Below, piece by piece: positions 28,974-29,139 of a stretch of 64,000 nucleotides of DNA. The stretch lies in NCBI RefSeq assembly GCF_050920415.1, contig NZ_CP169309.1; one strand, written 5' to 3'. Each line of letters begins with the position of its first letter. Positions within the stretch are counted from its first letter, which is position 1. This stretch comes from Escherichia coli (GTDB taxonomy: Bacteria > Pseudomonadota > Gammaproteobacteria > Enterobacterales > Enterobacteriaceae). Below the pieces are notes generated by a model. It was not told the DNA's origin. It was given only the letters and a program-made list of their open reading frames with translations, and made no database searches. A program made the position numbers and the translations under genes.

Positions 28974-29023
28974 AATGTTGTCCTCTTGATTTCTGCGTTC
29001 AGGATTGTCCTGCTGAACTATTA

Positions 29024-29039
29024 ATACAATTTGCGTGCC
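29024..29039 (-). promoter_or_regulatory. Sigma54 (-24/-12) promoter of the pspABCDE operon
   Basis: Minus-strand TGGCACGCAAATTGTA matches TGGCAC-N5-TTGC; located in the pspF-pspA divergent intergenic region. Confidence 0.75.
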
Positions 29040-29139
29040 AATTTTTTATCTTTTTGATTTATAAAGATCTGATTGAAGAATCAACAGCAACATGCCAGGA
29101 TGAGTTAGCGAATTACACTAACAAGTGGCGAATTTCATC

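Follow-up and report, generated by a model that had tools for sequence, protein, structure and literature searches.

Between the divergently transcribed genes pspF and pspA of Escherichia coli, an enhancer, an IHF site and a sigma-54 promoter have been described in earlier work (PMC11720261). Two enhancer sites are reported at pspA, to which PspF binds with the assistance of IHF, and pspF itself is expressed from sigma-70 under negative control by PspF and IHF (PMC3709507); three promoters of pspF have been annotated (PMC3041696). The IHF dependence of the pspA promoter is published (PMC2709558; PMC3709507; PMC11720261), with lowered induction of PspA and raised expression of PspF in an IHF (himA) mutant (PMC3709507). 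The presence of a non-consensus GT at position -12 of psp promoters has been noted as well (PMC3041696).

Here, the pspF-pspA region of an E. coli genome (contig NZ_CP169309.1) was analyzed within a contiguous stretch of 64 kb, hereafter referred to as the window. In the following, position -n denotes window coordinate 29014 + n, 29014 being the predicted transcription start of pspA. Of the 166 bases of the region, 165 are shared with E. coli K-12, and the gene order puuE-pspF / pspABCDE is the same. The only nucleotide difference, a single substitution, concerns promoter position -6 of pspA (29020), where the window has T and K-12 has C. This position is free to vary between species (T in 28, C in 28, G in 15, and A in 7 sequences). 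On the protein level, the K-12 homologs differ from those of the window by one residue in PspF (H192 in the window, Y in K-12) and by two residues in PspA. Since the region is nearly identical to that of K-12 and was found, at an identity of at least 95%, in 5419 of 5426 complete E. coli genomes, the K-12 literature can be transferred directly. We consider it highly probable (roughly 96%) that positions 28974-29139 represent the native control region of the phage-shock (membrane stress) regulon, which is common to two divergent transcription units and works by the published mechanism.

The psp locus and its flanking genes

The initial annotation had recognized a divergent pspF/pspA control region at 28974-29139. 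This assignment is borne out by the open reading frames, by both start codons (Table 1), and by the RefSeq annotation of the identical stretch in E. coli strain N3, which contains the same genes; E. coli K-12 MG1655 is annotated likewise. The additional statement that the region is expected biology suited to anchor the operon agrees with the degree of identity to K-12 and with the published layout of the same sequence: the pspF-pspA control region is already known, textbook biology and a sound annotation anchor. The coordinate map fixes the strand, the start codons, and the regulatory layout of pspF and pspABCDE in the window. As the psp locus is intact and K-12-like, the literature on the Psp membrane-stress response applies to it.

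The PspF reading frame encodes 325 amino acids (beginning with MAEYKDNLL) and contains a Walker A motif (GERGTGKE) and a GAFTGA loop, which identify the product as an AAA+ enhancer-binding protein. The gene of the cognate activator, with AAA+ domain and GAFTGA, thus adjoins the control region. On the minus strand, pspA is followed in the window by the reading frames of pspB, pspC, pspD, and pspE. A terminator-like hairpin located directly after pspE (27036-27013, minus strand; 10 pairs, 6 of them G-C, followed by a T run) marks the end of the psp operon. In the pspA-pspB gap, for which a partial terminator has been described (PMC3041696), the terminator scan gave no minus-strand hit.

When the sequence 5' of the pspF ATG is translated in the same frame, almost every species (loci L003-L082) shows a conserved pseudo-peptide (..VANFIM..). 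This pseudo-peptide arises as a by-product of the conserved PspF-binding site and could mislead start-codon callers to the upstream GTG at 29125, which was indeed the start chosen in the open reading frame listing of the window.

Further observations concern the neighborhood of the locus. The product of puuE (30237-31502, minus strand), the 4-aminobutyrate aminotransferase PuuE, carries Asp at residue 110 (FFTTDAEAVENAV), which is Gly in E. coli N3, E. coli E69, and E. albertii (FFTTGAEAVENAV). In class III aminotransferases, the glycine at this position belongs to a conserved segment that holds the phosphate of PLP. Because of this replacement, PuuE may be impaired in the window strain. The convergent gap between pspF and puuE (30118-30236) contains two REP-like palindromic units, GCCGGATGCGGCGTGAACGCCTTATCCGGC and GGCCTGATAAGCGCAGCGCATCAG. 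On the other side of the locus, pspE is followed by a 568-amino acid reading frame (25156-26862), which was taken as the sucrose-phosphorylase-like ycjM, as in K-12. In strain N3, whose psp control region is identical, pspE is followed directly by ycjX-ycjF (locus L001, 1-1457). Judging from this difference, the segment from ycjM to ycjW looks like a strain-variable block.

Table 1. Features of the pspF-pspA control region and adjoining genes in window coordinates.
Feature	Coordinates	Strand	Sequence or description	Basis
pspF-pspA intergenic gap	28974-29139		166 bp, non-coding, start codon to start codon	Open reading frame list and sequence
pspA, leading gene of pspABCDE	28305..28973	-	ATG at 28973	Open reading frames; RefSeq and K-12 annotation
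Remaining pspA 5' leader	28974..29013	-	Shine-Dalgarno sequence GAGGA at 28985-28981	
Predicted pspA transcription start	29014	-	A	Geometry only: 24 nt 3' of the -24 GG, counted from its second G
Sigma-54 promoter of pspABCDE	29025..29041	-	TTGGCACGCAAATTGTA	Exact match, top weight-matrix score, conservation, published ChIP and expression data
IHF-type core (candidate)	29047..29059	-	AATCAAAAAGATA (-45 to -33)	12/13 match to WATCAANNNNTTR; inside conserved tract 29042-29062
Second IHF-pattern match	29062..29074	-	AATCAGATCTTTA (-60 to -48)	Full match to a looser pattern; poorly conserved
Promoter-proximal PspF enhancer site	29103..29120	-	TAGTGTAATTCGCTAACT (-106 to -89)	Verbatim published 18-mer
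Promoter-distal PspF enhancer site	29123..29140	-	TGATGAAATTCGCCACTT (-126 to -109)	Direct repeat exactly 20 bp upstream
pspF, sigma-54 activator, divergent from pspA	29140..30117	+	ATG at 29140	Open reading frame, translation, annotation

The sigma-54 promoter of pspABCDE

The 16-mer TGGCACGCAAATTGTA occurs only once in the window (29040-29025, minus strand) and points toward pspA. It matches the sigma-54 consensus TGGCAC-N5-TTGCW at 15 of 16 positions, with the -24 GG (29039-29038) and the -12 doublet (29027-29026) correctly spaced at 10 bp. Its sole departure from the consensus is a T for C at -12, so that the doublet reads GT instead of GC. The element is located 52-67 nt 5' of the pspA ATG in the orientation of a promoter of this gene; counted from the A of this ATG (28973), the motif extends from -67 to -50, and its center lies at 29033.

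Matches to TGGCACN5TTGCW with at most one mismatch were found once in the window, compared to 3.4 expected from shuffled sequences. A weight matrix was built from the 19 other E. coli sigma-54 sites in PMC4591121, with pspA left out, and used to scan 128,000 positions on both strands. The pspA site obtained the best score (14.7 bits; runner-up, 12.8 bits), and the maximum in shuffled windows was 14.5 ± 1.7 bits. Taken by itself, the motif match does not exceed chance expectation for 64 kb, and since the motif statistics fall within the shuffled range the case for the promoter was not rested on them. By simple arithmetic, the top-scoring site would be located inside the 166-bp target and in the right orientation with a chance probability of approximately 166/128,000, or about 0.001. 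What raises the promoter assignment above chance is this genomic placement together with the phylogenetic footprint described below and the literature on the identical sequence.

In E. coli, sigma-54 ChIP-seq peak OS15 contains the motif TTGGCACGCAAATTGTA with a FAT score of 21 and a predicted start 41 bp from pspA (PMC4591121); the EcoCyc status of the pspA promoter, as relayed by the same paper, is "experimentally confirmed". A sigma-54 motif at -67 to -50 from the pspA start codon was also reported in PMC2831329, according to which deletion of rpoN lowers pspA expression 3.9-fold and overproduction of sigma-54 raises it 2.1-fold. In Salmonella, the identical 18-mer was bound in ChIP-chip experiments, and pspABCDE was induced 17-fold by a promiscuous activator (PMC3844500). 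The near-consensus -24/-12 element that had been proposed to be directed at pspA is hence confirmed by an exact match on the minus strand and by published data on the same sequence, with the one departure at -12; none of the data covered here speaks against it.

Conservation of the control region

A PspA-based genome scan yielded 80 loci from named species of the Enterobacteriaceae, and in 78 of these the pspF-pspA gap could be delimited. Its length ranges from 165 to 186 bp (78 species). Conservation was counted in an alignment of 79 sequences. Within the promoter element, none of the 79 sequences deviates at T-26, G-25, G-24, C-23, A-22, T-14, G-13, or A-11, while there is free variation at -19 to -16. 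At -12, T is found in 59/79 sequences and the consensus C in 18/79; with T in this proportion of the sequences, GT is the usual -12 doublet of psp promoters (PMC3041696). The mean conservation of the nine core positions (0.983) exceeds that of the spacer (0.593) and of the whole gap (0.737), and none of 20,000 random sets of nine positions was as conserved as the core. Furthermore, a 17-mer sigma-54 mask scored highest within the gap at exactly the register of the pspA element. Judged from the alignment, this footprint, with TGGCA and TTG.A fixed and the spacer free, is specific to sigma-54.

The segment from -127 to -7 is essentially free of insertions and deletions, with single-sequence gaps at two positions; other length variation is confined to -6/-5 (one or two sequences) or to the leader. 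The linker between the enhancer and the AT-rich tract (-87 to -64, 24 bp) is poorly conserved in sequence. The fixed length from -127 to -7 fits DNA looping with preserved helical phasing. A more speculative interpretation starts from the frozen length between -127 and -7, the 30 bp of unconstrained sequence between enhancer and IHF site, the T at -12 in approximately three quarters of the species, and the palindromic enhancer core that is broken in E. coli. Selection could conceivably have acted on the geometry of the loop and on a purposely weak -12 contact to set the basal leakiness and burst frequency of the response, although we regard this as tentative and rather less probable than its opposite. 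The comparative result as such, i.e., frozen spacing, conserved GT, and a palindromic enhancer consensus, only extends what was already reported in PMC3041696.

The PspF enhancer

The promoter-proximal enhancer site TAGTGTAATTCGCTAACT is listed as a PspF enhancer in a table of PMC4987338, where it is credited to Lloyd et al. (2004). This published 18-mer has one occurrence in the window, compared to 0.04 expected with up to three mismatches, and T-106, G-104, C-94, and A-92 are invariant in it. The distal site repeats it with a spacing of 20 bp (GCGAATTACA / GCGAATTTCA) and shares its last base pair with the pspF ATG, of which it forms the A. In a three-way alignment of the two pspA sites and the pspG enhancer, AATTC.C.A is common to all three. 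The PspF footprint is presumably found at about -80 to -126. Across species, 51 sequences have enhancer cores at both -120 and -100, and in 68 a core is located at -120. The majority form, TGAAATTCACCA, contains a 9-bp palindrome (TGAA-A-TTCA) that is broken in E. coli.

The distal site is the best-conserved block of the gap, with -127 to -117 kept in 69-79 of 79 sequences, and in this respect it surpasses the proximal site with its published 18-mer. This difference, and the location of block 29123-29141 directly 5' of and overlapping the pspF ATG, would also be expected if the block were conserved mainly as ribosome-binding region or 5' leader of pspF rather than as an enhancer. We consider this explanation improbable, however, as no recognizable Shine-Dalgarno sequence exists within the block, which instead repeats the proximal site at 20 bp in exact register. 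Moreover, the core AAATTC(A/G)CCAC recurs at pspG in the absence of an adjacent pspF, and the number of enhancer sites reported at pspA (PMC3709507) is two. Binding of PspF thus remains the preferred explanation for the distal block, in which enhancer and pspF leader roles probably coexist; such a coexistence would explain its extra conservation.

The AT-rich tract and the IHF-type site

Compared to a window average of 49%, the A+T content of the gap is 83% at 29042-29077, 54% at 29078-29101, and 61% at 29102-29139. The suggestion in the initial annotation that AT-rich sequence between promoter and pspF might contain IHF or enhancer sites is borne out for an IHF-type site, as the tract includes a candidate core (29059-29047), but not for the enhancer, which is situated at 29140-29103 in the block of 61% A+T abutting pspF.

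The single mismatch of the E. coli core to the IHF consensus is ATA in place of TTR. The core begins at -45 in 66/79 sequences; A-45, A-44, T-43, C-42, A-41, and A-40 are kept in 73-79 of the 79 sequences and T-34 in all of them, and at -33 only purines occur (A in 73, G in 6). Adjacent to it, AAAA at -32 to -29 is invariant. The second match to the IHF pattern, which starts at -60 and thus 15 bp upstream of the conserved core, was found only in the window and in the Escherichia loci L003-L005 among the sequences listed. From this pattern of conservation we infer that the core at 29059-29047 is the candidate IHF site of the pspA promoter. The IHF footprint, which we take to lie between about -30 and -60, would include it. 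According to its title, as cited in PMC11720261, the study by Jovanovic and Model (1997) found PspF and IHF to bind cooperatively in this region.

An intrinsically bent A-tract, or a contact of the alpha subunit with an UP-like element, might alternatively accomplish looping or recruitment next to -24 in the absence of IHF. The invariant AAAA and the A+T content of 83% would suit intrinsic bending, the E. coli core deviates by one base from the IHF consensus, and a title in the reference list of PMC2709558 reports IHF-mediated positioning of the alpha subunit on an UP-like element for the sigma-54 promoter Pu. Yet the conserved letters are those of an IHF core (ATCAA ... T-purine) beyond mere A or T, a perfect IHF core occupies the equivalent position at pspG, and both the himA mutant phenotype (PMC3709507) and the claim in the title of Jovanovic and Model (1997) call for IHF, which makes a tract acting without IHF very unlikely. 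An IHF site and an A-tract or UP-like role are not mutually exclusive.

Transcription start and 5' leader of pspA

The A at 29014 would be the exact start site of pspA, according to its distance from the -24 element. The resulting leader of 41 nt agrees with the "41 bp to gene start" given in Table 1 of PMC4591121. A search of the literature for a mapped pspA start coordinate or for "pspAp" retrieved none. The Shine-Dalgarno sequence GAGGA of pspA is invariant in 79/79 sequences. Across species, the leader measures 40-61 nt except in three sequences, for which the motif search had picked a wrong TGGCA. The pspA start has, we assume, been mapped by primer extension.

Folding of the leader from the predicted start was no better than that of shuffled sequences (z = -0.69). 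A structured leader hairpin formed by the inverted repeat GTTCAG...CTGAAC around the start was considered and rejected based on this value and on the unconserved 3' arm. An Rfam scan of the whole window detected no RNA family in or near the control region; the only hit in the window was a full-length match to the enterobacterial small RNA family STnc180 (RF02079) at 61224-61426 on the minus strand (202.7 bits, E = 2.8e-42).

Candidate sigma-70 promoters in the intergenic gap

A consensus scan of the gap did not identify a sigma-70 site oriented toward pspF. Under looser criteria, three weak candidates emerged, whose -10 hexamers occupy 29076-81, 29096-101, and 29114-19; none of them is consistently conserved. 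As an alternative, pspA might be transcribed from an ordinary sigma-70 promoter within the gap, with the sigma-54-like 16-mer matching by chance. Matches of such quality are indeed expected by chance in 64 kb, and Yersinia has an extra sigma-70 promoter upstream of the psp operon (PMC3041696). This alternative can nevertheless be dismissed with near certainty: the sigma-70 scan yielded no minus-strand hit in the gap, the element is conserved in precisely the pattern of a sigma-54 promoter, sigma-54 is bound in vivo (PMC4591121), pspA expression falls in the rpoN deletion strain (PMC2831329), and psp control in E. coli and Salmonella is described as entirely sigma-54 dependent (PMC3041696).

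Proposed mechanism

The following model combines the positions, order, conservation, and spacing of the elements as determined here with sigma-54 occupancy, dependence on PspF and IHF, and autoregulation as known from the literature (PMC2709558; PMC3041696; PMC3709507; PMC4987338; PMC11720261). Sigma-54 polymerase would occupy the -24/-12 element at 29041-25 and form a closed complex aimed at pspA. PspF would bind to the two sites spaced by 20 bp at -126 to -89 (29140-29103), and IHF would bend the AT-rich DNA near -40 (core 29059-47), thereby bringing the PspF hexamer onto the polymerase and also helping PspF to bind. ATP hydrolysis by PspF would then open the promoter, with transcription beginning near 29014. 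Without stress, PspA is expected to bind PspF and to block opening, and membrane stress would release PspF. When bound to its sites over the 5' end of pspF, PspF should at the same time repress its own transcription from sigma-70 in an IHF-dependent manner.

Comparison with known systems

The psp promoter is widely used as a sigma-54 model and as a synthetic-biology part, for instance in phage-inducible circuits and in sigma-54 CRISPR activation. The closest system for comparison within the same regulon is pspG of K-12, the only other PspF-dependent promoter, which contains the same three modules in the same order as pspA. Its enhancer core is AAATTCACCAC, and the form AAATTC(A/G)CCAC is common to pspA and pspG. 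The pspG promoter (TGGCA-N7-TTGTA) has the non-consensus GT at -12 as well. Its IHF core, AATCAATAGATTA, is located just upstream of -24 and matches the consensus perfectly, compared to 12/13 positions at pspA, and the spacing between IHF core and -24 is 2 bp shorter than at pspA. Further differences are that pspG has one enhancer site instead of two, according to sequence reading and PMC3709507, that by sequence reading its core is placed closer to the promoter, near -85 and not at -98 and -118 as at pspA, and that pspG lacks a divergent regulator gene.

Outside the psp regulon, nifH, glnHp2, and Pu resemble pspA in having an enhancer approximately 100 bp upstream, an IHF bend in between, and opening driven by ATP hydrolysis of an AAA+ activator (PMC2709558). 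In contrast to these systems, PspF lacks a sensory domain, its control being exerted by PspA as a separate protein (PMC4987338), and the PspF enhancer doubles as an operator for pspF.
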